A DNA stretch of 60,801 nt, counting the filler, from Dugesia japonica (Eukaryota): NCBI GenBank assembly GCA_001938525.1. It is 6 parts of 6 records of this genome, joined end to end, with 100 filler letters (N's around TTAATTAATTAA, not from the genome) between each part and the next. Parts side by side here need not be neighbours in the genome. Positions count along the whole stretch, not along the records: positions 24,825 to 33,720 come from MQRL01647943.1; positions 33,821 to 42,013 come from MQRL01485265.1; 4 more parts are not named here. The stretch is one strand, 5' to 3'. The translations under genes and the position numbers were made by a program. The notes under the pieces were generated by a model. The model worked only from the letters and a program-made list of their open reading frames with translations, made no database searches and was not told the DNA's origin. Shown here piece by piece: positions 21,201-56,857 of this stretch. Numbering within the stretch: position 1 is the stretch's first letter; every line of letters starts with the position of its first letter.

Positions 21201-23099
21201 GTTATTAGTCGAGTTTGATCCTTGTCAAAGCATCTAGGAACTGTAGAAGAAACTTAACACCCAGGAACACCTTAAGAACATTGGAAATGTGTATAGGCAC
21301 GGTAAATCTATTTGTATGATCTCTGTGAAGACAACAAACTGCAATGTTTAACAATTTTCAATGCTTTGTTGACCAGCCAGAAAAATGAACCGTTTTTACA
21401 TCGAATTGTCACTGGTGATGAAAAATAGATTATCTAAGAGAACAAAAACGGAGACTCCAGTGGATCTTTCTAAGACAACTACCGATTACATTACCAAAAA
21501 TTGGATTACATCCAAAGAAGTTCTTTTATGCGTTCGGTATACTTTAGAGTACATTGGAATAATCCATTTTGAGCTGGTGTAACCTGGTCACACTATTACA
21601 GCTGAAGTTTATTGTGAACAATTTGTCCGGTTACATCAGGATTTAACATTAAAACGACCAGCATTGGTAAACCGGAAAGGGGTGATTTTAAAGCAAGATA
21701 ATGCTAGACCTCATTTTGCTAAATGGATCAAGAGAAGATGAAGCAGTTGAGCTTAGAAGTTCTACCCACCCTCCATATTCATCTGACATGGCCTGAAACA
21801 CGTTCTCTGAAACACAAAACATTCAGGAAGATTAATTCTGGTTTAACGACTTTCTTTGCCTCAAAGGGATGATGATTTTTTCAAAAATCGAATTGCCAAG
21901 TTAGATGAAATTTGAGTAACGATTGTTGATAAACATGGAGAATGTATAATTAACTAAAGTGTAATTTGTATTAATAAAAAAACTGTTTTAAAAATTATTG
22001 TGAATAATTAATTATTTACCGGTATATATCATAATAATGGGTATTCTAAATTGTTTACATATATTGGAGAGACTTCTCGTTATCTCTGCACCAGAGTTCA
22101 AGAGCATAGTCGAAATAGTGGTAAAAGTAATATTGTTGAGCATCGGAGAACATGTAGAAAATCAATAGGGTGTTCTGATTTTAAAAATCTCTGTAGTGGA
22201 TTTAATAATTATTGGGAGAAGCTTTGTTGATAAGGGCATTAAATCCTAAAATTAATGTTCAGTTGACGGATTCAACATCGCTCTTAAAATTATTTTATTG
22301 AATTTTTTTATTGAGATTGCACAAATTATATAGTCATTTAAACTTTGAAACATGTGTGTTTTAATATTCTTTAATTGCCTGATGATGACGGTTATTCTGT
22401 CGAAATTGATCACAAATACATATTTTAAAAAATGGTAGTCAATTATAATAAAATTATAATATAATATAATATAATATAATATAATATAATATTTATTTAT
22501 TCATTTATTTATGTGTATATTTCAGAATACCTCTGACACATATTCAAAAAGTATTTGATAATAAAATTACACAGAAATCCGCTTTTATCGTTGCAACTGA
22601 AAGCCATCAAATTACGACTGATTACACAATGGCAATTTTAACGTCCTTCTTTAATGCAATGCCAACCACTTATTTCGATGTGGATATTACCAATTATGAA
22701 GGAGTAATTAAAATATTAGTAAATAATAGTAAACTGTTAATTTTAGATGGAGTGGTCTAATGAACTTTCAGAACGTTGTAAAATAGAATATCATTTCATT
22801 AAATATCATTTTTTTCGACTTGTAATGGAATTTATGGGAACCAGTGCTATTATAAATATATACTTAAAAAGCGATGTGATTACTTTATAATTTTGATAAA
22901 ATAAATATACATTTTTAGAACGAAAAATATTCCAAAATTTTTGAATCATTTTTTTCAAGAATAGCCAATTTAGCAATTAAAACATGTCCTATTAGAAAGA
23001 ATATGAATATATCTAATTTCAATGGAGTTACAGCCAAATTACTTGAAAGTTTCTATCAACTTTATTCTGAAAATGAACTGGGTCTTGTGAAGAAATATG
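16668..23099 (+). CDS. Partial HERC1-like E3 ubiquitin ligase (SPRY domain and following region); exons 16668-16890, 18296-18429, 18480-18560, 18605-18835, 18992-19257, 22526-22703, 22747-22875, 22919-23099
   Basis: All eight exons are AG/GT-bounded and join in phase into ~474 aa with no stop. Collinear blocks resemble HERC1 as I recall it: FDKQKSYSC~FDPEKAQCC, LSNGIWHISF~VTSGCYQWKF, LSCVIDIDQSFLYFSNN~ITCVLDMEARTISFGKN, ICPDYCVLLND~ICSPVAAVLAE, LAIKTCPIRKNMNI~AVMRSPIKRALGL. The exon structure is more certain than the HERC1 identity. Confidence 0.7.
18040..18237. repeat. (AAT)n microsatellite in a HERC1-like intron
   Basis: Pure AAT run on both sides of a gap. Confidence 0.97.
20836..22030 (+). 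mobile_element. Near full-length decayed mariner (cecropia/Hsmar1-like)
   Basis: ENYLRHYILF..NATRDICSTYGD, EPFLHRIVTGDEK, GIIHFELV*PGHTITAEVYCEQ, KRPALVNRKGVILKQDNARPH and HPPYSSDMA. Ends are approximate. Confidence 0.88.
22050..22420 (+). mobile_element. Penelope-like element 3' end (GIY-YIG C-terminus plus 3' region)
   Basis: TYIGETSRYLCTRVQEH...SNIVEH...DFKNL...EALLIRALNPKINVQ...LLKLFY*. Confidence 0.85.
22373..22417 (+). ncRNA. Minimal type I hammerhead ribozyme (Penelope-associated, slightly decayed)
   Basis: CTGATGA at 22379-22385, stem II GACGG/TTATT/CTGTC, GAAA at 22402-22405, TTGA loop, TC cleavage site at 22410-22411 and imperfect stem I AATTGC/ACAAAT. It lies just 3' of a Penelope endonuclease. 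Confidence 0.7.
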
Positions 23100-24474: not shown

Positions 24475-24659
24475 ATTACATATTCAAAAAGCATTTGATA
24501 ATAAAATTTCACANAAATTCGTTTTTATCATTTCAACGAAAAGCCATCAAATGACGATTGATTACACAGTTGCACTATTAACGTCGTTCTTTAATCCAAT
24601 ACCAACAACTTATTTCGATGTTGATATTACTAATTTTGAAGGATTAATTAAAATATTAG
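24475..24659 (+). pseudogene. Diverged duplicate of HERC1-like exon 22526-22703
   Basis: Reads LHIQKAFDNKISXKFVFIISTKSHQMTIDYTVALLTSFFNPIPTTYFDVDITNFEG versus THIQKVFDNKITQKSAFIVATESHQITTDYTMAILTSFFNAMPTTYFDVDITNYEG. The donor GGA|GT has become GGA|TT at 24644. Confidence 0.8.
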
Positions 24660-25819
24660 GTGACCTAAAAAGTTTCCGCAGTTTTGTCATAGGTTAGTTT
24701 AAGTTTATATTACAGATCATATATNNNNNNNNNNNNNNNNNNNNNNNNNNNNNNNNNNNNNNNNNNNNTTAATTAATTAANNNNNNNNNNNNNNNNNNNN
24801 NNNNNNNNNNNNNNNNNNNNNNNNTGGCTTTTCATTTTTGAAAATCCATACCTTAGACTCTCTTTTAGAGTAAGGAAGGTAGAGACTCAATGGCGTATTG
24901 TCTGTAGTTATTATATTAGTTATTATATTAAATGGAACTTCTTCATCATATACCTTTTAAAACTGATTAATAATTTCCCTTTTGACAGTTGCTTTGATAA
25001 GTAAAAATCGGATCACACTTCAAAATTCAATATTATTGAACATTCTGTTTGAATTATTCTAATTTAATGGCAACAAAAATTAGCATATTTAACCTATAGT
25101 ACATTTCTTATTTATATATAATTATTATTTTACGTGCAAAATCTTATTTAAATATCTTCAATATTTCTGATAGAGTCTAAGAACTTTTTAGCCTTACCAC
25201 GTATGATGGATTATTCTTACATTTTTAAACTTTAATAAAACAACTGTGATAATGAATACAAATTATGGAATGTTAATTATTTTAAAGTTCTCAATTTAAC
25301 TAATATGGCAACGAACGACGATAGAAGTTTGTTTGCAGTTAATTTCATGAATAAAGAAATACGTGGAAATTTATGAAAATAAAGACGTAGCATTGGGATT
25401 TGAAGAAAGATTCAGAAAGGCAATTGATAATGCTTAAAGATATCTAGGTAGATCTAAATTATCGAAGGAATAGAGAGCATGTGAGTATCTNNNNNNNNNN
25501 NNNNNNNNNNNNNNNNNNNNNNNNNNNNNNNNNNTTAACAAAGAAGCCAATAATGAATAGTTGCAATGACAGGAAGATACACCATATAAATTTGGATACG
25601 CTGTGTGTAATTCTGGTTTCATAACATTTAATTGTGTGACATTTAACCATACAGACACATAATCACGCAACATTAAATATGTGAAGGACTACTAAATAAA
25701 ATAAAATTTCACTTGAGGAATATCTATCGACTGTATTTCTTACTAGCTATTTCATTAACTTTTAACTTAACAAAGGAAAAACAATTACTGAGAAATATTA
25801 TGCTGCATAATTAGTCCAC

Positions 25820-26204
25820 TCAAATGAATAAAGTCAATTAACAACGCACTACCTCGCAGGCCGGCTATTGTAATAGCAGAACATCACAAACTACAATTTC
25901 AGCTGCTATCACATAAACCATATTCTCCAGATTTACTTCCGTCTAATTTCTTTATGTTTCCAGATTTAAAAATATGCCTTGAAAATAGAAATTTCAGATC
26001 AAATGCTGAAGTCATTCGTGAAGTTAATGTCAATTTGAATAGTTTGGATAAACAATACTACATAGAAGAAACAAAAACAAATGAGAAATATTGAAATAAA
26101 ATTTATAGGGTTCAATGGGGATTATGTTGAAAAATAAACTTTGCTTTGTGCAAAAATATATATTATTCCTTGTTTATTTTCACGTACTTATTGAACTACC
26201 TTCG
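25820..26204 (+). mobile_element. Mariner 3' fragment with right TIR
   Basis: FQLLSHKPYSPDLLPSNFFMFPDLK...FRSNAEVI...GDYVEK*, followed by TIR-like ACTTATTGAACTACCTTCG. Confidence 0.8.
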
Positions 26205-26989
26205 CAGAAAAACAGTGAGTTTTATTATTTTCACACCGTCAAATAATAATAATAATAATACTATTTCAATAATATATTACTAGTTTCAAAATATTATTAC
26301 AAGTTTTATTATTCTTGAACTTATAGATTTTATAAGTTATTATTTAAAAATATTCTTTTCTTTCTTTTCAATTGGAAAAAATAAATTATACCTTCTATTC
26401 TTTTTATCGTTAATTATGTTTTTAAAGATTTCAATTCCATTTAATTTTTACTATAATTTTGAATTATAATTTCTCTAAAAGCCAATAATTAGCAGTTCAT
26501 CTGTAAGAATGATAAAGGTGATAATTAAATATTTATTACTTTTAAATTTTTCGGTATATTTATAATTATATAATTTTTTTAGTAATTTCTTAAATATTAT
26601 TTAATATAATATTTATTATATTTCGAATTAAATCACACAACATTTCGATTGATAATTAGTGGTCTAATAATTTACTTTTGTAAGATTTTAATATCCACTT
26701 AAATAATTTTAATCTATATTTCACTTTTTAAANNNNNNNNNNNTTTTATTAATTTATTTATTTATATTTTAAATTTTAAGTTTTAAATTTAAACTAATAT
26801 TTAAACAACAAAATAATATAAATTTACAAAAAAACTTCCATAGAATTATTCACAATTTACAATTTTATTTTGTTGAGTTTTATAATTAGAATTATATTTT
26901 TTATATTTTTTGAGTTTAAAAAAATTATAAATTATGAATAGTTTTTTTTTATTTTTGAAATTTAATAAAATAAAACTTTGTTTGATTTA

Positions 26990-27439
26990 AATTGGTTCTC
27001 AAGCATTTTTAGTATTTCTTGCGTGGCGGTCTTATAGAAATAATTTTGTGGCTCGTGGAACATTTCAAAATTGACAATTTAATTTAATTAAGATTAACCA
27101 AAATAAACTTTGGAAATCTTCACGTTTTGTTCCAAATTTTGAGCAAAATCCAAATTTTAGATTAAACCATAGCGTTGAACTTTGTAGTCTGATGAAAAGT
27201 TAAGATTTTAGCAAGAGAAAATCACTATAAAATACATCATACATGAATAAAAAACTAACCTCTTTGTGTAGTTAAACGAAATATCTCGGTCAAGTTGATT
27301 TACGAATGGACTGCAAGGTAAATCATTAAAATAAAATAAATAATTAAAATAAATCGGCAAATTAACTTGGGAAAATAATACCTGTTAAACCGCTTTGAGG
27401 TCACCTATAGGACCGCGGATCCCAGTTTAAGATCTACTG
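26990..27439. mobile_element. Possible decayed hAT (Charlie-type) MITE
   Basis: Left TTGGTTCTCAA and right CAGTTTAAGATCTACTG resemble CAGTGGTTCTCAA-type termini. There is no clean TSD. Confidence 0.35.
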
Positions 27440-27595
27440 TTTTAAATGTTTGTTAGATTTTAAATTTAGAGACCTTACGAAACATGTAATTTTAATATTG
27501 AATTTTTAAATAAGCGTTGGATTTATTTAAAACCTTTGAAAAAATGTTTTGCTGTATTGTATTATAACTTTATAATAAATTTTAATAGTCTATAT

Positions 27596-30500
27596 CAGTG
27601 TTTCTCAAACTTGTTTTAACTATCGCCCCCTTAAGACACAATTTGATTTGCCCCCGCCCCCTAAAAATTATTTAATTGTATAATATACAAAATGTATTAA
27701 ATTACAAAATGTATTACATGTAAATTAATTTTAATGGTGCAGAACAATGTTTGATAAACTCAAATTTTATTCAGAACTTTTAATGAGATGAATGACACTG
27801 ATATTTCGCAACCAATTCACTCACTNTAGGATCGATGTTGCTTAGAAGTAGTCTCAAATCTCCCCTTTTTACAATTTGCAAACGATTTCTTTGCTTAGTA
27901 AGAAGTTTTAAAACTGCACTAAATCCGCATTCAGCCATGTTAGACGATGGGAAAGCAAGAAAATAAAGTTTAATTGCCTCCCACAAATTTGGATCTTTCA
28001 AGAATTTCTTTCTGCAACCAAAAATCCGCGTACGATTTTTTGAAGAGCGGTTTCAATTCAAAGTCGTTCTTTACAGCAATTAAGTCTTCTTGAATTACAA
28101 GATAAGTGTCAGTTCCACAAACATAAGTAAATGGATTTAGCACCCAGTCCGAGATTTCCATATTTATAAGATCTTGGTATCTTTCAATCATGTTCTCCTG
28201 TAGAGATTTCAAATGATCAAAATAAATCAAGAGGTCGTCATCTACTATACAAGTATCAGTGTCAGCAATTTGTAGTTTAAGAGTTGAAAAAATGAGACGA
28301 ATTCCACGACCAATATTTTCTCTGAAGAAACGCCGCTTTTCTATGAAATTACAAATTTTAGATTTTGCCTTAATGAGGCTTATATCATCACCTTGTAATT
28401 GCAAATTTAAATCATTGAATATACAGAAAAAATCAGTTAAATACGCAATATCTGTTTTGCATGCCAAGAGATCATCACCCAAATCACTGAATTTATTTTC
28501 CTGTAAAAATTGCACGACTGTGTCGAACAGAGAATAAAATTGTTTAAAACAATTTCCTTTGAATAACCATCTCACCTCGGTATGTAGAAGGAGACAGTCA
28601 AATTCTTTGTTATTCTCAATACACAATTGACGTAATATTCTAGAATTGATGGATTGATTCTTAATTTCATTCACTGATTTTACAACAATGCTGAGGGAAT
28701 TATGAAGACTACAGCTCACGTTTTTGGCAACCAAATGCTGTCGAAGAATTACACAATGTATCGTAAAAACGTTTGGTACTGCCTTTTTTAAATAAGAAAG
28801 AAATCCCTTGTTTTTCCTGTTAATGCAGGAGCACCATCTGTAGCACAAGTAATGATGTTTTTCACTAGTATATCTTGTTCTTTGAAGAGTTGTTCAACTG
28901 CCGTAAAAAAGACGCACCTCGAGTGTCTGTTTCCAACACCTTAGCAAACAGTAATTCTTNCATTACTTCATTATCTTTAATAAAACGAGTATAACCCTAG
29001 AGAAGTGCTTCATTGCCTGGTAGCGTAGATCATCCAGTTTTAGGTCAAATCTTTGTTTTTTCAGAATATCACACAAACTTTCTTCAATATCTCCAGCCAT
29101 TTCATCAATTCTTCTTCAAACATTATCATCACTGAGAGGAATAGATTTGGTGATGACACTTGGAGAGCTATGATGTACTAATGTGCGCAACACTTCTTCT
29201 ACGACAGGTAAAAAAGTTTCTCTCCAATTGAATGCGGATTCCCTGATTTAACAATTAGTTTGGAAATATTGTAAAAAAACGAGTCCATCGTCAGCTTTTT
29301 GTGTTTGTTTTGTCAGAAAAGAGATCATAGATTATCTTTGCCTTAATTTGTCTCTTAAATCTTGAAAGTACTATAGATCTTTGGTTCACCTTATCAGGAT
29401 NNNNNNNNNNNNNNNNNNNNNNNNNNNNNNNNNNNNNNNNNNNNNNNNNNTTCTTCTTCAAACATTATCATCACTGAGAGGAATAGATTTGGTGATGACA
29501 CTTGGAGAGCTATGATGTACTAATATGCGCAACACTTCTTCTACGACAGGTAAAAATGTTTCTCTCCAATTGAATGCGGATTCCCTGATTTAGCAATTAG
29601 TTTGGAAATATTGTAAAAAAACGAGTCCATCGTCAGCTTTTTGTGTTTGTTTTGTCAGAAAAGAGACGATAGATTATCTTTGCCTTAATTTGTCTCTTAA
29701 ATCTTGAAAGTACTATAGATCTTTGGTTCACCTTATCAGGATGCATTTTTAAGGTGGTCAGCGAGTCTTGATGGCTTCATCGCCTCGTTAGAAAGTTCTT
29801 TCTCACAAATAAGACACAAAGGCTTTTGATCATTATAGAGAAGCAGTAATAAAACCGAATTTCAAATATTCAACTGAATACTGTCTGCACCTTTTCTTTG
29901 ATGTGTTCTGAGACATAACTTTGGTAACCGAAAAAATCTGAANNNNNNNNNNNNNNNNNNNNNNNNNNNNNNNNNNNNNNNNNNNNNNNNNNNNNNNNNN
30001 NNNNNNNNNNNNNNNNNNNNNNNNNNNNNNNNNNNNNNNNNNNNNNNNNNNNNNNNTAAATAAATTGATAAATCGAATTCTTTTCATAACTCTATGACTT
30101 TTTTCCACCGGGTATATGACTCAAATTTCTCAAAAATTCTAGTAAAATAATATTCATAGAGATATCAAAAAAATACCACAGAAATTTGATAAAATTCTAT
30201 TCATAACTCTATGGCAGTAATTACTGGGCATCTCCGACGTCTGACACACAAATGACGATCTCTAACGTGATTGACTGTTCAGACAAAAGAAAAGGACGTA
30301 TCTAAAACTGGCATTTTCTCTCGCCAGATGTTTCAAGGACGCCTAAACTCTAAAGGAAGAAGACCTAGCAACCCCAACAGCACAGCCATAGAAAATTAAA
30401 TAGGATATCATAAAAATTTGATCAGCATTCTATGGGATTTTATTGAATTTTCTATTCCTTGCGCTACTGGAAACCCAATGTTAGACCCAAGACTGACTAA

Positions 30501-30752
30501 GGAAGTACACATTTGCTTGTATGAAAACCATGTTTTCAACAGCAACGATCGGTGTTGCAGGTTTGCCCGCATGCCGCGCGCAATAACTGCTGTGTAAATC
30601 CGCCTAGTCACAGAACAAGTAATAAATATAATTTGTTCAACGCCCCCTTCTGTACGTTCAACGCCCCCATGTAAGACGGAACTTCCTACCGCCCCCTTGC
30701 ACTTCTTTAGCGCCCCAAAAGGGGGCGATATGGACCACTTTGAGAAACACTA
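27596..30752 (-). mobile_element. hAT DNA transposon (Charlie/Buster, ZBED5/SCAND3-like) with disrupted transposase (ATG 29916 to stop 27780)
   Basis: TIRs CAGTGTTTCTCAAA (27596) and TTTGAGAAACACTA (to 30752), with perfect 8-bp TSD GTCTATAT (27588-27595, 30753-30760). BED finger RQYSVEYLKFGF..CLIC..NEAMKPSRLADHL, then TDGAP, IHCVILRQHL, LLLHTEVRWL, AYLTDFF and FPSSNMAECGFS, broken by frameshifts. Confidence 0.95.
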
Positions 30753-30785
30753 GTCTATATTGTCTTGCCTATATATATATACATA

Positions 30786-31180
30786 TAGGGTGTCTCATAT
30801 GCTTCCATACTTATGTGAAACAATAAATATTTATAAGAAAGGGAAACGATTTTTATTTCTATAGCATGCTCTATTTGGTCACCCTTGTTCTGAAAGCACA
30901 TTTTAAGTCGCATTATATACTGCTAAAGAACATGTGTATGTACAGCTGTAGTTATACTTGTAATGACGTTTGTGATCCGCTCTTTGAAAAGATTTATGTT
31001 TCGACTCTTTTCCTGATACAACATAGCTTGCAGATGGCTAAAAAGATAAAAATCAAATGGGCGAAAATCCGGGATCGGGAAGGCCATTGCACAAGACCAC
31101 GGGGATCTATCCAATCATCCGAAAGCTGATGATTAATTTTAAAATGTTTACGTATGTATGGAAACTTATGGGACACTCTG
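30786..31180 (-). mobile_element. Internally deleted Tc1/mariner-superfamily element (CAGGGTGTCC-type TIR)
   Basis: TAGGGTGTCTCATATGCTTCCATAC is inverted as GTATGGAAACTTATGGGACACTCTG, with TA flanks. The interior reads WID..G..QWPSRS/PDFRPFDFYLFSHLQAMLYQEK. Confidence 0.85.
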
Positions 31181-32592
31181 TATATTATTTATGTTTCCAA
31201 TACATTTCATTACACGAAAAGAAGAAATTGTTATTAAATAAATTTCGGATAATGAATTCGGAGAAATTCGGTTTGAAAATAAGAGAAGTTTATAATAAAA
31301 ACCAGTTCAACAGTTATTTCTTTTTATAATTATAGAACTTATAGAGTTTAAGTTTCAAAAGAAATTAAAAAATTAATGTAAATTAAAATTTTTTAATTTT
31401 CTTTTTATTTTTTTTTGAAAATCAAAATGAAATTTAAATTTATCAAGTAATCTAAAATTAATTATAATTGTAAAAAAAAGTAGAAAAGTTTTATTAATAG
31501 GTTGCTGCAATTATTTAATTAGTAAAAATGAAAGAAAATACTCGAATCTTTCAATGATTGAAAATAAATAAATAAATAAATAAATAAATAGAAAATGGAA
31601 AAAAATAATTTGTCTTGTTTCAAACAAATAATTCTTTCTGTTTTTTTTCATCCTTAAAAATTCAACTGTAAATTATCTAGACAATGTTTTTTTGATCAAA
31701 AAAAAACTTCAATTAAACAACGAAATCAAGCATTCTAATGAACAGAGAATTAACGATCCAATTAATAAAAAATTAATTTATATTTTATCTATAAATTAAA
31801 TAATAAATTTGAATTAATTAAATTTATAGAATTTTACTGGAGATTAATTTACAACAAAACTCAGATAATAAAGAAAGCTTATTTTTGATATTAACAATAA
31901 AAATAAAACAAATAAAATTCCTTTAATAGCAAAATTTTATTTGCTAGGTGAGTCTAAGATGTTCACTGTGTATTCATAAATTATTTTTTAAAAAAATAAA
32001 AGATAATGATTTATAAAGATTTTTCAAATAAATTAAACAAAACTCAAAAATTTTTGATTAAAAATATTTCAATATTTTATTATTTTCGATTTAACTTCAA
32101 TAATTTCAAATTAAGTGTTTATATTTTAACTTTTAATAGTTATATTAATTTTTATTTTTTATATCTTAACATTTTTTCTATTAGTTATATTTCATTAATT
32201 TAAACATCTTCAAGTTTTATATTTTTAAAAATTTTCAAAAAGTTTTTTCCAAAATTCCAAAAAATTTGACTATATAATTAAACATAATAAAAATATGAAT
32301 TTATTACAAAAGAGAATAAAATTTTTTTAATTCATCCTATGCAGAATTTGTTTATTTTTATTTAAATTTTAGTGAATTTCTACAACTTTTAAATTCTACT
32401 AGGTGGTGTATGAGCGGCAAGCGGCAACGTGATCATCATTATATTTTAACAAAACAAAGATAAAAATATATATAACTAGTAAGTAAATGTGAGTGCATGT
32501 CCACAGGTCCTCTCCCTTTAGCAGTAAGAGATAACACGTGCGGTATTAAACGGTTTTGGTTATCGTGGATTTATTGATGGATAATTTTTTGA

Positions 32593-32787
32593 TCGGATCA
32601 GATTTTTGATCATATCAAATTCGAACCAGAGTTATTTCCTGCTTTAAGACTTGTAAAATATGACCCTTTATGTGTNAATGTATTCTCAACAGGAAAACTA
32701 GTAATACTTGGACTTAAAAGTTTGAATTTCGAAGAATATGTGGATAACATTATATCAGATTTATTCAATTTGATTGAAAATCTTTAA
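32593..32787 (+). pseudogene. TATA-box-binding protein (TBP)-like single-repeat fragment
   Basis: The open frame SDQIFDHIKFEPELFPALRLVKYDPLCVNVFSTGKLVILGLKSLNFEEYVDNIISDLFNLIENL* matches the TBP repeat signature YEPELFPGL...IFVSGKVVLTGAK. The N-terminal part is absent, with an in-frame TGA at 32590. Confidence 0.7.
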
Positions 32788-33720
32788 GAAATATGCAATA
32801 CTGATGCAAAACAAGTATATTTCAAGTACAAATAATATTAATTTAAATTTATATATTTAATTTTCAAATAATTAAATAAATATGTTTTGGTTTTTTATTA
32901 TGCATATATAATATATTATATTTTCATTATCCTTTCTCGAAAAATATTAATCAAGAAGAAGCAACAGTTAGCAAAGAAGAAGTTAATAAAGAAAGTTTTA
33001 TTATAGAAGAAGAAGAATTATTTGTTTATGAGAAAAGTTGGTTTTATTTTATCATTAATATTTTTTTATTGATTTTATTTTAGATATACCTAAGAGGATT
33101 CTTTCGCACAATAAATGGGGCCTCAAAGGAATGGTCGCAACTTCAATATTGGGAGAAGATCAATTTCCAATTACAAATAGACATGGAAAAAGTGATACAA
33201 AAATACGTGGAAGATTTCCCAGGCTGTTTGATAATGACGGATCAAATAGCTCGGACAAATTCGAAAAGAAAATGCTTAGAAGTATTACAAAAAATGATAA
33301 GAAGAAGAAGATCTGAAAATAATTATATAAATGTAAAAACCGGCCCTCTTTAGGGCTACAAATCTTGATGGTTAATCGTTTCAAATTTATTAAAAATGTT
33401 GACTTAACTAAATGTATTTTAACCAAATCAACTTGTGAATGTACAAACCGGTTCTCTTTAGTGAAAGAAATTGTTGCATTTTTAAAAAATTTAATAAAAT
33501 TGTTGCTTTTAATAAAAGTTTAATAATGAAATTGTTTCTTTTTATAAAAATTTAATAAAAATGTAGTAATGAAAAATTTGTTAAACTAAAAAAGAATTTA
33601 CTTATCTAAACATTTGGCACGTTTTCATAATAATAAAATATATACGTTGTAAGTAGTTTCATCAGAATCTTCTATTTTGTTATTTGGTTCCATAAAAATT
33701 AACACTTGAGTTGTAAAAAA

Positions 33721-33820
33721 NNNNNNNNNNNNNNNNNNNNNNNNNNNNNNNNNNNNNNNNNNNNTTAATTAATTAANNNNNNNNNNNNNNNNNNNNNNNN
33801 NNNNNNNNNNNNNNNNNNNN
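33721..33820. other. Assembly linker N44-TTAATTAATTAA-N44 (12-mers also at 16276, 24769, 42058, 52413)
   Basis: The same 12-mer, with stops in all six frames, sits centred in 100-nt N blocks five times. Confidence 0.95.
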
Positions 33821-33822
33821 CT

Positions 33823-33972
33823 GTAATTGAAAGTGGAAGTTTTGAAGATGTCTTTCCTATAAATTCAATTTCTGAATCTCAAAGTGATGTAGAGTTGTTT
33901 TTAAATGGATCTCAAACAGAATATTTAGATTTGAATGATACTTTATTGTATATTTAAGTAAAGGTGGTTGAT
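33823..33972 (+). mobile_element. Maverick/Polinton major capsid protein N-terminal fragment
   Basis: VIESGSFEDVFPINSISESQSDVELFLNGSQTEYLDLNDTLLYI*VKVVD matches the Maverick MCP pattern IE.G...E..PI.S......IEF.I.GS...YIDL..T.LY...KI. There is an in-frame stop at 33955. Confidence 0.75.
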
Positions 33973-36900
33973 ATTTAAACAATCAATAAATATATTGATT
34001 TTTTAATTTCACAATACTATAATTATATTTGAAAGTAAAAATGGTGAGTTTATTTCTTTATATTACAATTTTTATTTAAATTAAATTTTAATTAGATTTT
34101 TTTATAAGATAATTTAATTTATTATTAATTGAAAATTAGGTAAATATATTAAAAGGTTCCATTAATGTATGGTCAATGTCATTTAAAAGTTCCATTAATA
34201 CGGTCAAAAATGTGACAAAGATGTCTAATATGTGTTAAATATCATATAATATGTTATGTATTGAATAAATAACAGTTGCGTTGGAATTCCTTACAATTTT
34301 GTGGATCTGAGTCTAGTTAACTATTGACGATGATGACTAATTATTCTTAAACAATTACAGCGGTATTCAATTTATGTGCGGATGTGAACGGATGGAAGCA
34401 TTGCTTCCAGAGATGCACATACCATAATCCAGCTAAGCCTTGTTCAAACTACACAAGCTGATCGATAAAATCAATTATGAACGGACTCGAATTGGATGCA
34501 AAAGATCCTGATGGATTTGCTATGTTGAACTGTACATGTTGGAGGATGTAATGTATTGGTGTGGAAGGTAAACAAGATTGTTGCTGAAACAGTGCATGAA
34601 AATAATTGATTATTAATAATTTATTTGTTTAAACTAATTAAATTTAAAAAAATAAATAAAAGAAAGAGAAAAGGAAAAGAAAAATATTTTTAAATTTACC
34701 GCCGAAAAAAAGAAAATATTAAAAAAATTTTAATTTCCCGCAAAAAGAAAATTTGATTCGATCAAAATTCTTAAATCCACGATAACTGGTAACGTGTACG
34801 GTTTATGTGAGTGCACTGGATCACTATTATCCCGGCTAAAAATAAAATATGTTTTGAATTTTCCGCCAAAATAAATTTTAAAATTAAAACAAAATTTGAT
34901 TTCCTTGCAACTGATTGAAGCACAGTTTAAAGGCACAGATTAAAGCACAGACCCTTTTTGTGCTACCTGTTCTATGAGTTGTTCTATGGGTTATCGTAGA
35001 TCGGAAAAACATATCACCTGTTCTACGATTTGTTTGAAATGATTAATGAACAATGAAAACTAATTTTAATCAGATTAATTTAAATTGTGTTTCTATTTAA
35101 ACGTTTATAACCAGAATGAATTGAGCAATAGTTTCTGAAGAAGGCATAGCCAAAATATTGAACCATCTATGAAAATAGAAAAACATTGTTTTTTTCTTTG
35201 CAGTTGAAAATTAATTTTATTTAAATTTGTTTTTCAAAATATTTGAGATATATTTTTCATGTGTGTTTAGTTGGGAATTTAATGGTGAAGTTGAATGAAG
35301 TCGATTTTTGGTTGGTCCAGTTAAATTCAAAGTGGTCGGTTTGGGTAATTTTTGGATGTTTTGATCGAATGTGGTCAGTTTTTGATTAGTTTAGGTGAAA
35401 TTGGTCTAATTTTTCCTCAGGATTGGTAACTTTTGAGCGATTCGGTCAAATCTTTTATCGGTTTTGTTCAGTTTGGTTAATTTGTTCGTGATTTGGTCAA
35501 TTATTTAATCAATTTAGATAATATTTGTCATATGATTTCATTTTAGAATTGGAATTGAAGTTTTCATCTAACAGAAACAAGACTTATTATGAGATCCTAA
35601 AGGAGTCCATACTTGCAGCAGCTGAAGAATATGAAAATTAGTTGTATTGTTTTATTAATATATGTTATTTTAGAAAATTGTTTTTTTATAATTATTTTAT
35701 TAATGTAAATAGATTTTATAAGTAGTAAATAAAAAATGTAAAAATATTAATTAATGCAATAGGGATGCAACTCAAATGCAACACATGAGCAACACACAAT
35801 CACCAAAAATTACATTTCAAATAATTTTTAATAGTTTTTAATATCATAAAACCATTAAATATACTTGAAAGTCATTTTTACAACACAAAAGCTGCATTTA
35901 TGCATCACAAACATTTTAGCTTATTTAGCACCTTATAGACCGATTTTGATAGCAAACTCAAATATATTATCGAAACCTAAAAATTATCACATGACACTCA
36001 TTCTGTCACGATTTTCAATTAAAAAATATACACGTTTACACACACATGCACCATCACCTCCAAAATACCAAACTTTATATCGTCACATGTACCTTGTGAT
36101 CCTCTTTCATTCAAAGTAAAGATCGTCCCAATCCAACAGTAAATTGCAACACTAGACTCATTAAACCGAAATCCGATAACACGTCACTGTAACCAACAGG
36201 AACGCTTTTGTAAAACGTTATGTATGACATTGTATACAGATTTTATAAACCATATCTAAACAACGCATCAAAATCCTCAAAAAATAAAAAAAGATAAAAA
36301 AGATAGAGGAAAGAAAATGAAGAAAAGAAAAAAGCCAAAAAAGTTGTAAGATTTTAATTTTTTGTTAAATTTATTTGTTAATTAAAACAAGAACTAAGTC
36401 ATACGGTTGACTGGACACCATGTTATCACTGTTTTCTTTGAAATAAACAAAACAAATTTTTCCGCTAAATTAACTTACGACTTAGTTAAAACAATAAATA
36501 GTTGATGCAAGCTCATGTCCCGAGTATCTCTTAACCTTACCCAACCCCTTCCATCCCTCCCCAGCATTCAAAACAATTAAACAGCACTAAAAATCAATTC
36601 AAAATCAATAATCAATCAAATGTGAAAATCAATAATCAATCAGGTCAAAAATCAATAATCAATTATCGATCTGCGCGGGGGTGCGCGATAACTCATTTTG
36701 CGGTCATACGCTTACATTTANNNNNNNNNNNNNNNNNNNNNNNNNNNNNNNNNNNNNNNNNNNNNNNNNNNNNNNNNNNNNNNNNNNNNNNNNNNNNNNN
36801 NNNNNNNNNNNNNNNNNNNNNNNNNNNNNNNNNNNNNNNNNNNNNNNNNNNNNNNNNNNNNNNNNNNNNNNNNNNNNNNNNNNNNNNNNNNNNNNNNNNN

Positions 36901-37479
36901 NNNNNNNNNNNNNNNNNNNNNNNNNNNNNNNNNNNNNNNNNNNNNNNNNNNNNNNNNNAAATTTATGTAGATTAGAAAATGATAGTGATATTTTGAAAAT
37001 TATTCATTTATTAATCGACACCTTGAAAGTTCGTTTCTTCTTCGCAAAATATCATAATCGAATTACGATAAATCATAATAGTAGAAATTTAATCTTCTTA
37101 ATTACCGTAATGAAGCATGTGCCAATTTTAATATCACATTATTTTCAATATAATAAAAAGCGTAGATAAAAAAGATATCTGTAAAAATAGACCAAACGAA
37201 CAAAATGATTTTATTCAGATTATACTATTTAAACAAAGATTTAAGCAATTTTACTGAATATAAGACTATAATCATAATTCTTGATTTTAATAATTTTTCC
37301 AATAAAAACTTTGTTTATATTCTAATAAATTTTTTTATAACAATATTTTATTAAAATTGCTATTTTATAAAAACCTTTAAAAAATATGAAAATATATAAA
37401 AATTTCAAAAATTAAAAAAAATTTTATATCTAAAAAATTTTAATCAATTTAGTCGACAGAGTTGTCTGTACATTAATGC

Positions 37480-37790
37480 ATGGATTATGAAATCTAATAA
37501 CGCCTCGTAAAACTATTTCTCCCACTAATTTTTAAATTGCTTGAAACAGGATATTAGTGATTTTAGATTGTTGTAGGGTATTTAGAATAAAGAGTTTAGT
37601 GTTTGTAAATTTGACAAAGATAATGGCTTAATATTTTTTAATGATTTTGATTATGTGGCCAAGATGGAAGCAATTTTAAATGGTCCACAGTTTTTAAAGA
37701 TCAACCAAATGCGGAAAAATGGAAAATTACCACTAATGAAAGATGAGGAATATTTAAATGAATCGATTAATAATCTAATCTGAAATTGAC
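37480..37790 (+). mobile_element. Penelope-like RT N-terminal (DKG region) fragment
   Basis: VCKFDKDNGLIFFNDFDYVAKMEAILNGPQFLKI matches the K.DKGN..V.....DY..KM..IL.D..F motif. Confidence 0.65.
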
Positions 37791-40689
37791 ATAATTACAA
37801 TTATTACGAGAAAGGTTTTCGAACATAACCATTATCGCATTTGAGATTTCATTAAAATAAAGAAAAACCTTCGATCAAAATAAAATGTATTTTTATAGAA
37901 ATTCGAATTTTTGACAATTGTCTTCTTCAGAAATATAAGGACTTTTTAATAGATTCAAACGATAATAGATCTTTGTTACAAAATTCTCTATATTTTAAAA
38001 AGAATTTATTGGTTTATTTAAATTATAAGTTTGTATTTTAATTTATACATCAAAATGTTTTAATTAAATCGAAAAATCTCTCAAATATTTAATAATTAGT
38101 TGGGTTTTTATATTGTTTTAATATAATTTTTAAATATTTGAAATTTCTAAAATTTTATCAATTATAATTATTATAAATAAGTATAATTTTATTCAATTTA
38201 ATTGTTATTATTATTGACTCTTATATTATTTTTGAAAACTAATTATATAAAATTATTATTATAATGAAAATATTTAATTTTTTAATTCACTGATCAAATG
38301 TTAAAAATTTTAAAAAAGTAAATAATTTAACAAAGTGTAATTTTCACAATAAACAAAAATTATTATTAGTATTATTACTTTTTTATTTAGGATTCTCTAA
38401 AAGTGAAAACTAGTGTTAACGACTTATACATATCTGAGATTAGTGACAGTGATCAAAAGACTCTTACTGAACTATTTGTAAGACCGTTCACATCCGGTCT
38501 CAAATATACATCGCTACAACTATTTAACCTTTATAAAATGAAAAACAGTTAGTCATCAATACCAATATTTGGCTAGACACAGATTCACAATTTCGCAAAA
38601 TTATCAGAAATGCAAAGTCAATTGTCATCAATTCAATATTATTATTAAGTAAATCTTTTAATTAAATTATTACATAAAATCATTACTTATTATCATTAAA
38701 GAAAAGCATTACTAAAAATTCATTAAGTTAAATCCTTAAAGAAAATTATTACCGTTTAATAAATATTAATCATAAATTATTAAATATATCCTTACTTATT
38801 GTCAAAGATCGTAAAAATTCATAATAAGTTTTTATATTTCCAGTAGCATTAATCATAATTCATATCATTAAGAATTCATAACTTATACAATTATTATTTA
38901 ATAAAAATCATTACCATTTTAATAAAAATAATTACCGTTAAATAAAAATTTATTGCCGTTTAATTTAAATAAAATTACCTCCTTACTTATAATTCATAAA
39001 AATTCATAAGTTTTCATATTTTAAATAATTTATAAGAAGTTTTCATATTTTCAATAGCATTCATTCATAATAATTTCCATTAAAACTATTTGACATTCAT
39101 TTCATAAATAAATCTAAAATAAAATTAAATAATTTAACTAATTAAATATATACTTACTATAAATTCAACTTAGAAATAATGATGGAATAGTTAGTATATC
39201 TTGGTTATATGCAATCGATGCACACAGTATTTCATATGCAACCCTATTTATTTAATATGGTAAATTAAATTATAATTCAATAAATAATTAATTGTTAGCC
39301 ATGTGTTAAAATTAAATATTGCTTAACAAAAATTCATTTATTAATTATAAATTTATGACTTAAGATTTTAAATTATGAATTTTAAACTGATAAATTTTGA
39401 TTCATAATAATTTTAAGCTTTTAAATGGTTAGTCATATGACTTTTAAGGGGTTAGATTTTATTTTATATTAATTTCAAGCTGATAAATTTTAATTCATAT
39501 TAGTTTTAAGATTGTGAACTTTAAGTTACAAGTTCAAAGCATATAAATTATAATTGGCAAAACTTATTTGTTGTATATTTTATGTGATGTTTATTTAAGT
39601 TGTATTTTCAATGAGTGATGCTGTATAATATGTGATGAATCCAATATTTTTTCATGTTGATGTATCTATTTTCTATGTTGAAGTGTCAGTTTTATATGAC
39701 CAAGTAAACTGTTTTCCATGTTGAAGTCATTATTTTCAATAATGAAACCTATATATTTCCATGTTGACTTAGAAATTTTATAAATAAACAAAATAAATCT
39801 TTCAAAATAACTAAACTTATGAAATCATATAGACTCATTGACACTTTTTAACTTAATAAACATAAAAAATCATATACATCAAACATTAATATTATCCAGG
39901 GGAAAATCCAACATTAATATTGTCCAGTGTAAAACACTACATTTAATCACATAATTTTCTAAGCCAAAACATAAAAATTACAAAGATGTCATTAAAATCT
40001 TTTATAAATTACATTGAAATCAAAAAAAGCTTTAAAACATTACAAGAAGTATTTGAAAACTATCTAAAAATTACTAGACGTCGCAGAAATATTTCTACGG
40101 TTTACTAGAAGTATAGTTAACTAATTAGACATTTACTAGAAATTATGGACATTTTTCTGAAATATACTTTAAGATAAAACATTTTCAAAAATTACATAAA
40201 CAAAGTTTTTAAAATCTCATGTAAAATATAGGGAAAATAATTAAAATATTACATAGAAGTCAATGAAAATTTATAAAAGTTACTTAGAAGTCATTTAAAC
40301 TTTTCAAATCTCAATGAAAAGGATCGAATATTTACTAGATACCAATAAACTTTTTCAAATAACTGTTTTTTATCTTATAAAGGTTAGACAGTTGTAGCGA
40401 TGTATATTTGAGACCGGATGTAAACGGTCGGAATTATTGCTGCCTGAGATGCTCATACTGTAATCAAACTTAGTCTAGTTAAAACTACACAAGCTGATTG
40501 ATAAGTTCAATTATGAACGGACTCGATTGGATGCTAACGGATCTTGATGGATTTGCTTCATCGGACTGTACATGTTGGAAAAAGAAATGTAATGGTATGG
40601 AATGAAAACAAGACTTATATTGAAACAATGTATGAAAATAATTTTAATGATATTATTGATTTTAACTTAAATATATAAATATTAACAAT

Positions 40690-41514
40690 GATTTTCCTTG
40701 GGTGAGCACCTAATATTAATGAGCCAGAGATTGTCTAATGCCGGAGCATCTAATAGTATGTTCAGGGAGCATCTAATGTCGAGTGCAGTCAAAAGTGTGA
40801 ACCCATAGACATCTCATAGTTTAAACATTGGACAACTAATGTTTCCAATGATAATCTCATAGTTTGATCCCTGGAATATCTAATATTTAAGCTGCTCGAA
40901 GAAACTTAGGTTAACTGTCTAAATGTTTCAACATTTTGGTTAATTTAAATAAAATTAGGCGTTCTTACCGATTTTAGTTTAAACCCATTAAAAATCATTA
41001 ATTTCAATTAATTTAAACAAAAGTTTCATATAAATCTTTTAATATTAATGTCATTCATTAGATCTAATGTTCATGTTAATATTGTCTGGCGCCATTAATA
41101 TTAACAAAGATATTGTCCGGCGCTACTAATGTTAATATTACCTAGGAGGAAATTTTCTTTAAAAATCATTCATTGTACATAGTTTAAACAAGAAATCATT
41201 AATTTCAGTTAATTAAACAAAAATAAGTAATTTTACTGAATTTAAGCAAAAGTCATTAATGTCATCTCGTTTTAACAAAAGGTCATAAATATCCATTAAA
41301 TTAAACAAAAAATAATTATTCCGTAATTACGACGTAANGATGACGTTATTAACACGCACAATTGCAACCAATCAAATTGCATTATTACTGTGCCAATTAC
41401 GTAACCATACATCTAAAATTTTAGGAAACATGTGTGCGACCAATCAAATTCACGCGCCAAAAAAAATTCTACCTCGGAGGTGATTGTGGGGCAGTGCGCG
41501 AGTTTCTATCTACT
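40690..41514. mobile_element. Putative Maverick-like terminal region ending CTATCTACT
   Basis: Shares GAGCATCTAAT, TAATATTG.CC.G and TTAATTTAAACAA subrepeats with 2840-3305 and 9770-10121. It has CCAATCA boxes and a GC-rich tail ending CTATCTACT (AGTAGATAG on the other strand). Confidence 0.45.
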
Positions 41515-42295
41515 TGTAGCTATCTTCTTACTTTTATAAAGTCACAGAAGCAAATTACCGTAATTAAACAATTTATAGATTTCTAAATATTTAATAATAC
41601 TTACATTTCATTTTATAACAATAAGTTGGTGATTTGTAAGCAATTAGTTTACAATAACCACAAATTGTCTTATTGGATTTGTTATGTTTACCACCAACTA
41701 TTGAAAGATATTTGAATTTTACTAACTGCTCAGTAGTATTAAGAGTTAATTCTGATGAATCTGGTGTACAATAAATTTGACTTTCATAAGTAAAATAATA
41801 AACGGTGGGATCTTTTGGAAAGATATCTGCATCTGAAAATTCTTTGATNNNNNNNNNNNNNNNNNNNNNNNNNNNNNNNNNNNNNNNNNNNNAAACATTT
41901 ATCGCATAGAATTTCAAATAAATTTCCATTTGCTTTGCATTTGCATCGACATTTATTAGTAATCCATGAAGTATTTACTGGTCGTTTAATAGAATCTTTA
42001 TCAATACAGAAATNNNNNNNNNNNNNNNNNNNNNNNNNNNNNNNNNNNNNNNNNNNNTTAATTAATTAANNNNNNNNNNNNNNNNNNNNNNNNNNNNNNN
42101 NNNNNNNNNNNNNGTAAAATCGTAATAATGGGAATTTGTTATATCCATAATGGATGTTGGTGATTAACAATCAAAAATTTATTAATAGTAACAACGCCAA
42201 ACAAACATATTAGCAATAGTGCAGCTATAATAAGAAGGGGAAAATTAATCCTGCTCAATAATGTGGTAATAATCTATAATAGTNNNNNNNNNNNN

Positions 42296-45849: not shown

Positions 45850-47560
45850 TTTTCTTTTTATATGTCATACTGTCTTTGGAAAAATTTTCTAAATTGTTCG
45901 ATAAGGACCTTCAAATCTGTCTTGGCTTTTATTTAGTATTTCTACCTTGATGAGGACATAATCTCCTACCTCGAATTCTCTATTAGTAGTCACTTTTGAA
46001 ATGTTTTCTTTAGTTATCTCTAAATCCTCTGACTCGTACCACTTTTTTTTGTTAATTTTCGTTTTAAATTCAATCTCAGCCAAGCTCTTTCCAGTCGTCT
46101 TCTATTATGTTGCGTTCATCGTAAATTCTATTTCCCATAAAGTGTTTGCCCAATCCATTGTCTTTCTAACCTGAAGTCTAGCATTAACTTAATCTCAAAT
46201 TGTCCTGAATTGTCTTTACATTTTTCCATTTACATTGTGATGATAGGGACTCGAAAAGCAAAGTTAAATGCCTAGCTTCCATGCAAACGTTCTTATAACT
46301 CTGGTTTCAAATGCTTTTAAACAATTTAGTTTTATCTTTCTCGGACAACCAAATTTGAAAATCTTCTTTTCAAAAATAGCCTTTCGCATTGTTTCTTCGT
46401 CTTGTCAAGGCAGTGCGAACCAAGGCAATAAGAACAAGATATATACTAAACTGGTCTATTATTACAAGAATGTATTTTTTTTGTCCACTTGTTTCCCGCA
46501 TTGATCCACATAGATCTGTGAATATGACTCCAAACAAATTGGTAGCTTCTAATCTCTTTGTCTTCTCTTTAGTTACTGTCATCATTATTTTGACCTTTTT
46601 TTACAAATTTCACGGCTACGAACCATCTCCTGTATTTGATTCTACAAATTCTTCGTAATACGTTTGTTTCTCATATAATTGTACACCTTTTCATGTATTT
46701 CTTCTATTGCTTCGTATATTTTGTCACACAGAATTTTAATTTTCTCGATAAAACTTTTTTCTTCAGAAATGTTTAATTGATACTCTTTATCTGTTTCAAT
46801 TATGTTCAGTACTTTTGTTTTAATCTTGGCATCTTCATGTAACCTTTGACATTGTACACATACCTCGATTCTTGGTCTAGATAACATATTTGCATTATCA
46901 TGTTGAAATCCTTTTCTATATTCCAAAACTATATCTAGACTACTCAGATAATTATTCCATGTCTAGAATTGTGACGTAATTAGGTTCTTCGTCATCATAG
47001 TGAAAGTTAGAGCTTTATTATCTGCTTTAAGAGTAAATCTACTACCGTGTAAGTAATAAATGCATGGAAAAATTATATACAGTCAATGAATCTTTTTTTG
47101 TAATGCAGTATCTCTTTTCATGACGCGTCACTGAGTGTGATTCATTGGCAACAACTTTTTCTCTTCCTTCTTTATCTCTCTTTGACAATAATACTGGCAT
47201 CTGCATCTAATATAAATTCTTTGTATATGTCTGGAAAACACAATATTCGCATAGTAATTAGGGCTTTTTAAAGACCCTCAAAAGTATCATTATTTCCATT
47301 TATTCATTCTAACAGAGACTTTTCCTGATTAATTCTTAAATCAGCCTTCATTATTACCCCAAAAAAACTCTCTTAATTACTTTATAGTGTTGATTTTTAT
47401 TGTTCGTTAATATCAGAATGTCATCAAAAATATACAATGGTTGCATTAACTTTGCCTACTATCATCTCCTGAAATGTTTCCGGTGTCTCTGCAATCCAAA
47501 ATGGCATTAAATTAAAACATTATTATCCGACACTTTTTCGATTTCAATAGTGGATATGAT
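45850..47560 (-). mobile_element. Decayed Gypsy LTR retrotransposon pol (RT-RNase H-integrase)
   Basis: MPF.GL..PETFQ, YLHGSRFTLKADNKAL, EYRKGFQHDNANMLSR, IFTDLCG...KYILVIIDQFS, FSSPYHHNVNG and FEVGDYVL...RFEGPYR appear in Gypsy order. Confidence 0.85.
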
Positions 47561-51900: not shown

Positions 51901-52046
51901 ATTCGATCATTCAAATCACTTTCTTTATTTTGAATTAATTTCCCTTCTGCACTAACTCCATGTTCAATACAATAAAGTTCCCACATTGCACTTCCCATTT
52001 GAACACCAGCTTGTCCGATGTGTAGTGTAACAATTTCCTTAGGCAT
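48989..52046 (-). CDS. Divergent alpha-tubulin with ~557-aa C-terminal extension (1001 aa; exon 1 52046-51824, intron 51823-51772, exon 2 51771-48989)
   Basis: Exon 1 reads MPKEIVTLHIGQAGVQMGSAMWELYCIEHG...PRTVMVDLEPTVV. A 52-nt GTTAGT..TATAG phase-1 intron rebuilds the G|AT Asp of DEIR. Exon 2 has EDAANNYARG, HSYAGGSGSG, TNLVPYPRIHFP, FVDWCPTGFK, KRAFVHWFVGEGLEEGEF and LEKDYEE, all alpha-tubulin hallmarks. The frame stays open from about 50662 to the stop at 48989. Confidence 0.93.
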
Positions 52047-52266
52047 TTGACAATGAATAAAATAAAGATAGATGGCAATCAATTTCGTAAATCGATGTCA
52101 AATTATTAAAATTTACTATTTAACCTGTCTAATTTAAATTTCAATTTCACAACGAAATTTAGTATATTTCAATGAGGTTTTAAGAGTTTGAAAATTTAAA
52201 AAAATTTATTTAAATTGCAAAAAAATTAATATTTCATCATCCAACAAAATTATATCATAAAAAACG

Positions 52267-56100: not shown

Positions 56101-56857
56101 ATAATAGAATATGGATTATGAACAATAACACAAAATACGACTAAGTACACTCCGTATGAAATAGTGTTTGGGAGGATACCTAGAATCGATATCTGGAATG
56201 CTGATAGGAGGGAAACAAACATCACGAAGAATTCTGATCAATATGTAGAACAATTAAAGAGAAATATTATGAATATTCATGGCCTTGTAAGAAAGATTAT
56301 TGAAGAACATAATGAAGTTACATCAGCTAAATATGAAAAATATCGGCGGAGAGAGGAACTTAAAATTGATGATAAAGTTCTGATAAAAAACAATGCACAT
56401 GATGGTTTTAAAAGGCGATATATTGGACCATTTAAAGTAATAAAGAAAATTAATGAATGGACTTACATTTTGCTTGATGAAAATAGAAGTACTTTAATTC
56501 AACGAAATTACACTAAAATCAAAAGAATACCAAGAGATGAACTTTCCTACAAGTCGTGGAGCACACAAATATCAATAAGAAGTAAACAGAAAACAGCCTT
56601 ACCAGTACAACCTGATCGACAAATTAAGAGCGATATCAGAAGACATTTTCCAGAAAGAATGACAAGTAATCCGAATTCTCAATATCGATAAAGCAAAGGG
56701 AGGAATGTTATATATTTAAATTATAGTAATATTTAAATGTCTAAAGTCAAATTATTGAATATTTAATTTTAAATATTAAAATGAATTTGATTTGTTTTAA
56801 TATTGCTTTTTATGAAATATAATTTTAACTTGTTAAATATCTTATTATTAAATATCT
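53152..56857 (+). mobile_element. Gypsy LTR retrotransposon, decayed; LTRs 53152-53328 and 56706-~56857
   Basis: The 5' LTR is TG..CA followed by PBS-like TGGCG at 53329, and a PPT AAAGGGAGGAA precedes the 3' LTR. Coding motifs: protease LDTGVDLNVIS; RT SPWNFPIVVMKKKNG..MCVD, MPFGLCSAPTTFQ, YLYDVLI; integrase CKQC, IAIDIKG, VDYFSK, IYSDCG, GPF. Confidence 0.92.

Follow-up and report, generated by a model that had tools for sequence, protein, structure and literature searches.

A probable remnant of a Maverick-type mini-TBP gene in Dugesia japonica and a candidate promoter box in Maverick elements

Remnant of a mini-TBP gene

The window analysed here (the whole stretch of 60,801 nt of Dugesia japonica DNA) very probably carries the dead remnant of a TATA-binding protein (TBP) gene of Maverick type, referred to below as mini-TBP. 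The remnant (nt 32620–32787, +) is 168 bp in length and comprises the last 55 codons of the gene and its stop codon. It corresponds to residues ~96–150 of a ~150-aa protein family, the part of the second TBP repeat that runs from its stirrup to the final helix. In intact elements, mini-TBP is probably the element's own late-promoter factor, reading the box YATAAACR and using host TFIIB and RNA polymerase II.

The original prediction recognised a TBP-repeat signature in a 64-aa, stop-to-stop frame (nt 32593–32787, +), and this was upheld by a Pfam search (PF00352, E 1.3e-5, 25.4 bits against a cut-off of 22.9). The homology begins at nt 32620, but the first nine codons of the frame (nt 32593–32619) are unrelated: alignments with close relatives start at nt 32620, the stretch before this point resembles an unrelated piece at nt 34748–34786, and the nine codons are flanking sequence that happens to stay open. 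No ATG is present in the frame, and the missing 5' two-thirds of the gene gave chance-level matches only when sought on the same scaffold with tblastn and profiles. The window copy itself cannot make the protein. It retains both stirrup glutamates, two of the phenylalanines and the R/C/N triad described below. The fragment is 76–81% identical over 53–55 aa to relatives P0001–P0004 (80% over 55 aa to P0001), 60% over 48 aa to the mini-TBP of Maverick locus L008, and 45–60% to the six Maverick-linked members compared; identity is 44% over 34 aa to Arabidopsis TBP1 and 39% over 56 aa to a TBP from a viral contig.

Arrangement of the window

Five identical linkers of the form N44-TTAATTAATTAA-N44 occur in the window (at nt 16232, 24725, 33721, 42014 and 52369), which is therefore a chain of separate scaffolds and not one piece of a chromosome. 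The TBP remnant lies on the scaffold at nt 24825–33720, a major capsid protein (MCP) remnant on that at nt 33821–42013, and a DNA polymerase (pPolB) remnant on that from nt 52469 to the end. The scaffold join between the first two was judged from the linker pattern, and the linker that had been noted between them (nt 33721–33820) was confirmed. As the three remnants are on three scaffolds, their neighbourhood in the window is no evidence of linkage. The closeness of TBP and MCP, the presence of pPolB and the AGTAGT hexamers of the window were all rejected as such evidence.

The MCP fragment had been reported ~1 kb from the TBP frame. Its homology is real, but the adjacency is an artefact of scaffold concatenation. 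This N-terminal remnant (nt 33823–33972, +; in-frame stop at nt 33955–33957) stands at the start of its scaffold and matches residues ~18–69 of a 403–424-aa family found in the Maverick loci described below (tblastn E 8e-12, profile E 6e-15, hhalign probability 98.4). A member of that family has a predicted double-jelly-roll MCP fold (pLDDT 73.5), with a Foldseek E of 1e-14 to PBCV-1 and iridovirus capsids. Likewise, the pPolB noted in the window is present as a C-terminal remnant (nt 60503–60798, −), split over two frames and matching pPolB of locus L015 (tblastn E 4e-19) as well as the profiles, but it has no physical link to the TBP remnant. On the TBP scaffold, neither tblastn with all locus ORFs of at least 50 aa nor 13 family profiles detected anything else of Maverick type.

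Copy number and a second deep repeat

Depth was taken from contigs of four D. japonica DNA runs (three studies), placed on the window at 85% likeness; it is a sum over overlapping contigs and not a copy number, and the best-matching run may be the source sample. Summed depth was 2.0–3.9e5 at nt 32648–32725 against about 9–160 at nt 32180–32569, so that the TBP stretch was about a thousandfold deeper than its flanks in all four runs. Mini-TBP sequence is high-copy in D. japonica. In each run, 39–57 contigs diverge from the window sequence exactly at nt 32620, which shows that other copies extend in the 5' direction where the window copy is cut, and the depth peak stops at the end of the reading frame (loose ends at nt 32780). 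The long pieces differ from the window copy at about 18–24 of 143–161 letters, and the window copy is therefore aged. What this dead copy adds is mainly one more genome in which the mini-TBP family is abundant.

A very-high-copy repeat (nt 33652–33720, +) begins at or near an AGTAGT and runs off the end of the scaffold, its start being inferred from the partly filled bin nt 33584–33661. With a summed depth of 4.5–8.2e5 at nt 33662–33720, against 25–73 at nt 33506–33583, it exceeds the TBP remnant. The repeat may be a Maverick terminus that points away from the TBP remnant, and if so the remnant lies ~870 bp outside that element; AGT repeated twice is given in PMC8097293 as the commonest end of vertebrate Mavericks. 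The Maverick-like termini claimed for the window were not established, as AGTAGT occurs nine times on the plus strand and 12 times on the minus strand, and a single occurrence, that at nt 33652, coincides with the start of a very deep repeat.

Short open frames at nt 32880–33520 had been described as orphan ORFs beside the TBP fragment. Open frames are indeed present, but they lie outside the high-copy sequence (depth mostly below 200, with one bin at 277–784), and they gave no Pfam match at the cut-off and no credible match to the ORFs of 81 loci. The ESM Atlas returned nothing usable for the frame at nt 33084–33350, the top score (0.87) being a lead only.

The mini-TBP family and its phylogeny

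Intact mini-TBP is known here from metagenome relatives and not from D. japonica. Of 34 candidates, 13 proved to be longer relatives of the fragment, and the top seven of these are 144–152 aa in length and 72–79% identical. A family profile matched 293 proteins at E <= 1e-15 among 5680 candidates, and also 55 clusters (50% identity) at E <= 1e-30; the 120 of the 293 matches that were listed are all from metagenome or read-assembly sources. Full-length mini-TBPs in the loci are single, intronless ORFs, scoring 57–65 bits against Pfam TBP in six of the seven intact locus relatives scanned and 45.5 bits in the other (L081).

The tree had 44 rows, with the fragment filling 32% of the columns, and included neither TRF2/TBPL1 nor P0354, the latter having no anchor motif. 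Cellular TBPs were nearly all from plants among the 120 listed, with animal TBP thinly represented. The fragment falls in a 97/93 clade of close relatives, nested in a 100/99 clade with eight Maverick-linked TBPs, and all mini-TBP rows occupy one 100/100 branch. Forcing the fragment next to eukaryotic TBPs (three from plants and one fish TBPL2-like protein) was 80 log units worse, with a p-AU of 0.0002, and a host-TBP origin was rejected on this test. The phylogeny against host and viral TBPs that had been proposed as a check thus groups the fragment with Maverick mini-TBPs, apart from host TBP (TRF2 not sampled); given also the high depth, the sequence is not a single-copy one grouping with a host TBP/TRF.

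Many more distant TBP-like proteins of 150–200 aa (P0108–P0179) carry the mini-TBP stirrup motif. The nine of these that were tested join the 100/100 branch, and the family is therefore wider than the sampled loci. Of 32 pattern matches obtained in IMG/VR with the TBP alignment, one was a relative; this TBP, 182 aa in length and encoded on a contig of 44.7 kb, groups with the cellular TBPs.

Descent of the fragment from a host TBP/TRF paralogue that evolves fast, as one of its exons or as a pseudogene, is very improbable and has been largely refuted. Such an origin would suit the Pfam TBP match, the host-like, low-copy DNA around it and the one AG found 20 nt before the start of homology, and the tree was drawn without TRF2/TBPL1; but identity is far higher to the intronless 144–152-aa ORFs than to plant TBP (at most 44%), the AU test opposes any grouping with eukaryotic TBPs, depth rises about a thousandfold above the flanks, and 5' of nt 32620 dozens of contigs carry other sequence. 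Somewhat less improbable, though still unlikely, is the capture and amplification of a Maverick piece by a non-autonomous element or repeat in D. japonica, in which case the depth would be uninformative on intact Mavericks. Against capture, the peak ends together with the reading frame, other copies continue past nt 32620, and two further scaffolds of the window bear an MCP and a pPolB remnant from the same type of element; the narrowness of the peak between low-copy flanks and the lack of any other Maverick gene on the TBP scaffold weigh in its favour.

Maverick context of the family

Decay of a mini-TBP gene that belonged to a Maverick is the preferred reading of the locus, and the proposal of a TBP-like gene belonging to a Maverick/adintovirus lineage finds its support outside the window, where core genes stand beside the family on single contigs (L008, L015). 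A metagenome scan gave 125 relatives among 266 pattern matches, and the best 80 of the 125 were kept as loci. The core genes counted were pPolB, ATPase, integrase, MCP and protease, with seeds taken from the loci themselves. A Pfam scan of 108 of the 405 ORFs from these loci gave matches to DNA_pol_B_2, rve plus chromo integrase, Pox_A32/IVa2 ATPase, Peptidase_C5 and PLA2; in the same 108 ORFs there was no match to TFIIB, and families F2 and F3 received no assignment.

At least one core gene was present in 41/80 loci, in 28/36 of at least 3 kb, in 14/16 of at least 5 kb and in all eight of at least 7 kb, while the five loci of at least 10 kb each have three or more. All five core genes occur on L008 and L015, where pPolB was assigned by clustering with Pfam-positive pPolBs, and four occur on L044, L052, L060 and L062. 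No core gene was seen in 39/80 loci, most of them short and two longer than 5 kb (L011, L022). The locus contigs are partial, not exceeding 18.4 kb, and with AGTAGT occurrences as the sole guide to termini no paired ends were identified. The notion that copies of the family are never linked to Maverick genes fails. The mini-TBP gene is found in several different gene orders, beside the ATPase, the PLA2 or a protease–F2 block, and this recurrence indicates a stable place for it in several Maverick lineages. The nearest relatives of the fragment (P0001–P0007) are on contigs of 569–1573 bp without retrievable context, so that the Maverick link of this subclade rests on the tree.

Family F2 is a Maverick gene of ~160 aa (e.g. 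L008:9591–10052 and L062:2078–3034, with 20 more loci) that often adjoins mini-TBP, is sometimes duplicated, and has the YATAAACR box. It matches no credible Pfam family; its acidic N-terminal motif and conserved Cys/His residues are reminiscent of a DEDD-type nuclease. Family F3 (~115 aa; L009:1236–1571 and 18 more loci) lies directly beside mini-TBP in one lineage. Like the TBP gene it is without the box, and it may be an early gene or a partner; no usable match to it came from the ESM Atlas. Other cargo in the Maverick loci includes leucine-rich-repeat, ubiquitin-conjugating-like and KilA-N/DUF3627 genes (L012:1918–3327, L035:2303–3109; L008:225–719; L060:7145–8002).

Predicted fold and conserved residues

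A model of P0001, built with a 101-sequence alignment, is predicted to be a two-repeat TBP saddle (pLDDT 95.8). It aligns with human TBP over 148 residues (Z 13.7, rmsd 2.5), and Foldseek matches it to cellular TBPs at E 3e-9. Helix H2, on the convex face of repeat 1, is cut to ~7 residues (57–63) in the model, and the segment from G50 to Q71 has a median of 20 residues in the family against 32 in Arabidopsis. In TBP, the convex H2 face binds TFIIA, Brf1, TAF1 and Mot1.

Canonical TBP has four phenylalanines that intercalate into DNA. Conservation was counted in a set of the same size (101 sequences), and F41, F101 and F117 are each kept in 100/101, while the fourth (Arabidopsis F57) has no conserved equivalent among them. 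The stirrup glutamates are likewise retained (E97 in 97/101, E99 in 98/101), the two acidic residues that contact TFIIB according to PMC7221094. At positions matching yeast I194, V203 and L205, changes at which alter TATA specificity in TBPm3 (PMC1636458), the family has R105 (90/101), C113 (87/101) and N115 (100/101); the yeast equivalents were assigned by an offset of 42 from the structural alignment, with N4 in register with Arabidopsis N27. Concave-face changes fixed across the family are, in Arabidopsis numbers, V29>N, T82>M, N117>S, V119>T, I152>R, V161>C and L163>N. Judged from this conservation, the DNA face of mini-TBP is fixed on new residues and not decayed.

The YATAAACR box

The box was searched for as ATAAAC[AG] within 100 nt upstream of the ATG, with shuffled sequences as control. 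ORFs were used only if they had an ATG start and 120 bases upstream, and near-duplicates were removed (ATPase reduced from 25 to 22, TBP from 72 to 57). The motif was chosen post hoc, after the sequences had been viewed, and related elements are not independent; the counts that follow are to be read accordingly. The box precedes 21/22 ATPase genes (shuffle mean 1.0, maximum 4) and all ten MCP genes, as well as 14/17 for F2, 10/12 for PLA2, 10/14 for integrase, 3/5 for protease, 9/15 for F4, 5/7 for F9 and 4/5 for F20. Shuffle means did not exceed 1.0, nor maxima 4, in the box-rich families, ATPase and MCP included. It is rare before TBP (3/57, shuffle mean 2.0), ZnF (1/10), F3 (2/15) and pPolB (1/3). 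An ordinary TATAWAWR stands before only 21/57 TBP genes (shuffle mean 5.7, maximum 11).

The distances from box to ATG cluster around 35 nt for ATPase and PLA2, with a wider spread for MCP, protease and integrase. Across 107 regions there were 91 sense matches to ATAAAC[AG] and one antisense, and three matches to GTAAAC[AG]. The 91 matches divide into 38 that are intergenic, 33 inside the upstream ORF and 20 overlapping the upstream stop codon; those of PLA2 are intergenic in 10/10 cases. The base before ATAAAC is T in 48, C in 22 and A in 5 of 78. The sequence patterns suggest that mini-TBP itself may read this box.

Proposed role and alternative explanations

In the model considered here, host TBP would first transcribe the mini-TBP gene from its ordinary TATA box. 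Mini-TBP would then bind YATAAACR via its altered concave face and recruit host TFIIB through the retained stirrup glutamates, after which RNA polymerase II would start on the virion genes; with its shortened H2, mini-TBP would probably escape some of the regulators of host TBP. With rather less assurance, many Mavericks may possess such a one-gene switch, i.e. a minimal TBP expressed from an ordinary TATA promoter, retuned at the TATA-specificity residues to YATAAACR, using TFIIB and polymerase II of the host, and with the helix gripped by host regulators cut back.

The main rival, though a distinctly less probable one, is that host factors read the box, either host TBP tolerating weak TATA variants or a forkhead protein, and that mini-TBP, while still Maverick cargo, serves some other purpose, for instance sequestering host TFIIB as a decoy or binding the element ends or replication origin. 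The sequence ATAAACA fits the forkhead consensus RYAAAYA, one intercalating phenylalanine is missing, and the kept TFIIB glutamates would suit a decoy equally. Nor was a TBP-less Maverick control found in IMG/VR, where searches with the MCP alignment (0/320) and the ATPase alignment (0/133) gave no relatives, so that the box could predate mini-TBP or be read by a host factor. Against this, the strong forkhead variant GTAAAC[AG] is seen three times to the 91 of ATAAAC[AG], the box is one-directional and lies near 35 nt from the ATG, as a core-promoter element would, and the DNA face of mini-TBP is fixed on new residues. It is much less probable that the box is no promoter at all but signals 3' ends or polyadenylation, or arises as a side effect of TAA stops in packed genes, with other targets for mini-TBP. 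The box does resemble AATAAA, and 20/91 matches use the TAA of the upstream gene; yet T or C precedes ATAAAC in 70/78, which argues against AATAAA, most matches are intergenic (all ten of PLA2 among them) or inside upstream ORFs, and the box is scarce before TBP, ZnF and F3 in the same packed arrays.

If mini-TBP does act as a late-promoter factor, it would be the smallest late-transcription system known to be encoded by a virus and, with its box, a naturally occurring orthogonal TBP/promoter pair of altered specificity; through its many germ-line copies it could, in addition, affect host sites matching the box. The timing of Maverick capsid genes and their dependence on the host are made testable by one small protein and one 8-bp motif. 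Maverick virions have not been observed, according to PMC8097293.

Comparison with known systems

Mini-TBP shares with cellular TBP (human 1cdw/7egb, yeast 1ytb, Arabidopsis 1qn7) the two-repeat saddle and three of the four phenylalanines, and it also keeps the first Asn, the Pro and the two TFIIB-contacting glutamates. It differs in being ~30 residues shorter, with H2 shortened, and in having ~20% structural identity. The TBPs of large dsDNA viruses (PMC7221094; BFVD) are similar in that they are virus-encoded and diverged while keeping the DNA-binding phenylalanines. As described in PMC7221094, however, they mostly lose the TFIIB-contacting glutamates (conservation of ~40% at C.L3.2) and have a viral TFIIB as partner, whereas the Maverick family keeps both at 97–98/101. 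The mini-TBPs do not group with the one viral-contig TBP tested (L001).

The working model for mini-TBP is the TBP mimic of beta- and gammaherpesviruses (ORF24). In KSHV, ORF24 has the conserved phenylalanines and a polar DNA interface and directs host polymerase II to late genes (PMC12529657). According to the same source it is large, has multiple domains, acts together with other viral factors and, by prediction, is not compatible with TFIIB, in contrast to the bare 150-aa saddle of mini-TBP, which keeps the TFIIB stirrup. By analogy, the mini-TBP system would resemble the viral late-gene TBP mimics, with the surface for host TFIIB kept.

Vertebrate Mavericks (PMC8097293) have pPolB, integrase, ATPase, protease and capsid genes in common with the loci described above, as well as intronless ORFs. 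Their ends are AGT repeats, and among their eight core genes, as set out in that paper's main text, TBP and TATA have no mentions. Neither term was found in the main text of 10.64898/2026.10.13.758929, 10.1101/2023.10.06.561300, 10.1101/2023.08.22.554363, 10.1101/2024.03.25.586562 or 10.64898/2026.06.19.733378. A TBP-like gene on an element of Polinton/adintovirus type does appear for the MELD viruses with adintovirus-like PolB (PMC8502044, Fig. 5; preprint 10.1101/697771). There, 'TBP' is an abbreviation in the figure legend, within the section on non-animal datasets, and comes with no description of a family, a shortened fold or a promoter motif; the label may or may not stand for the same family as mini-TBP. 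It was the only Maverick TBP found in the literature, and figure gene maps, supplements (including the viral TBP list of PMC7221094), subscription journals and Repbase could hold the family.

Other features of the window

Two frames of 307 aa and 90 aa (nt 27783–28893, −), on the same scaffold as the TBP remnant, resemble a decayed hAT-type transposase; they had no Pfam match. A coding-like stretch is duplicated at nt 22538–22719 and nt 24478–24659, the copies being 87% identical and 1.9 kb apart, with no credible Pfam family. A divergent alpha-tubulin-like gene occupies two frames at nt 48992–52097 (−), the second of which stays open for ~560 codons past the tubulin C-terminal domain and encodes a long Ser/Asn-rich tail. 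Decayed pol remnants of LTR retrotransposons were found at nt 45892–46962 (−), with a weak integrase match, and at nt 53947–56688 (+), with protease, RT, integrase and SH3.
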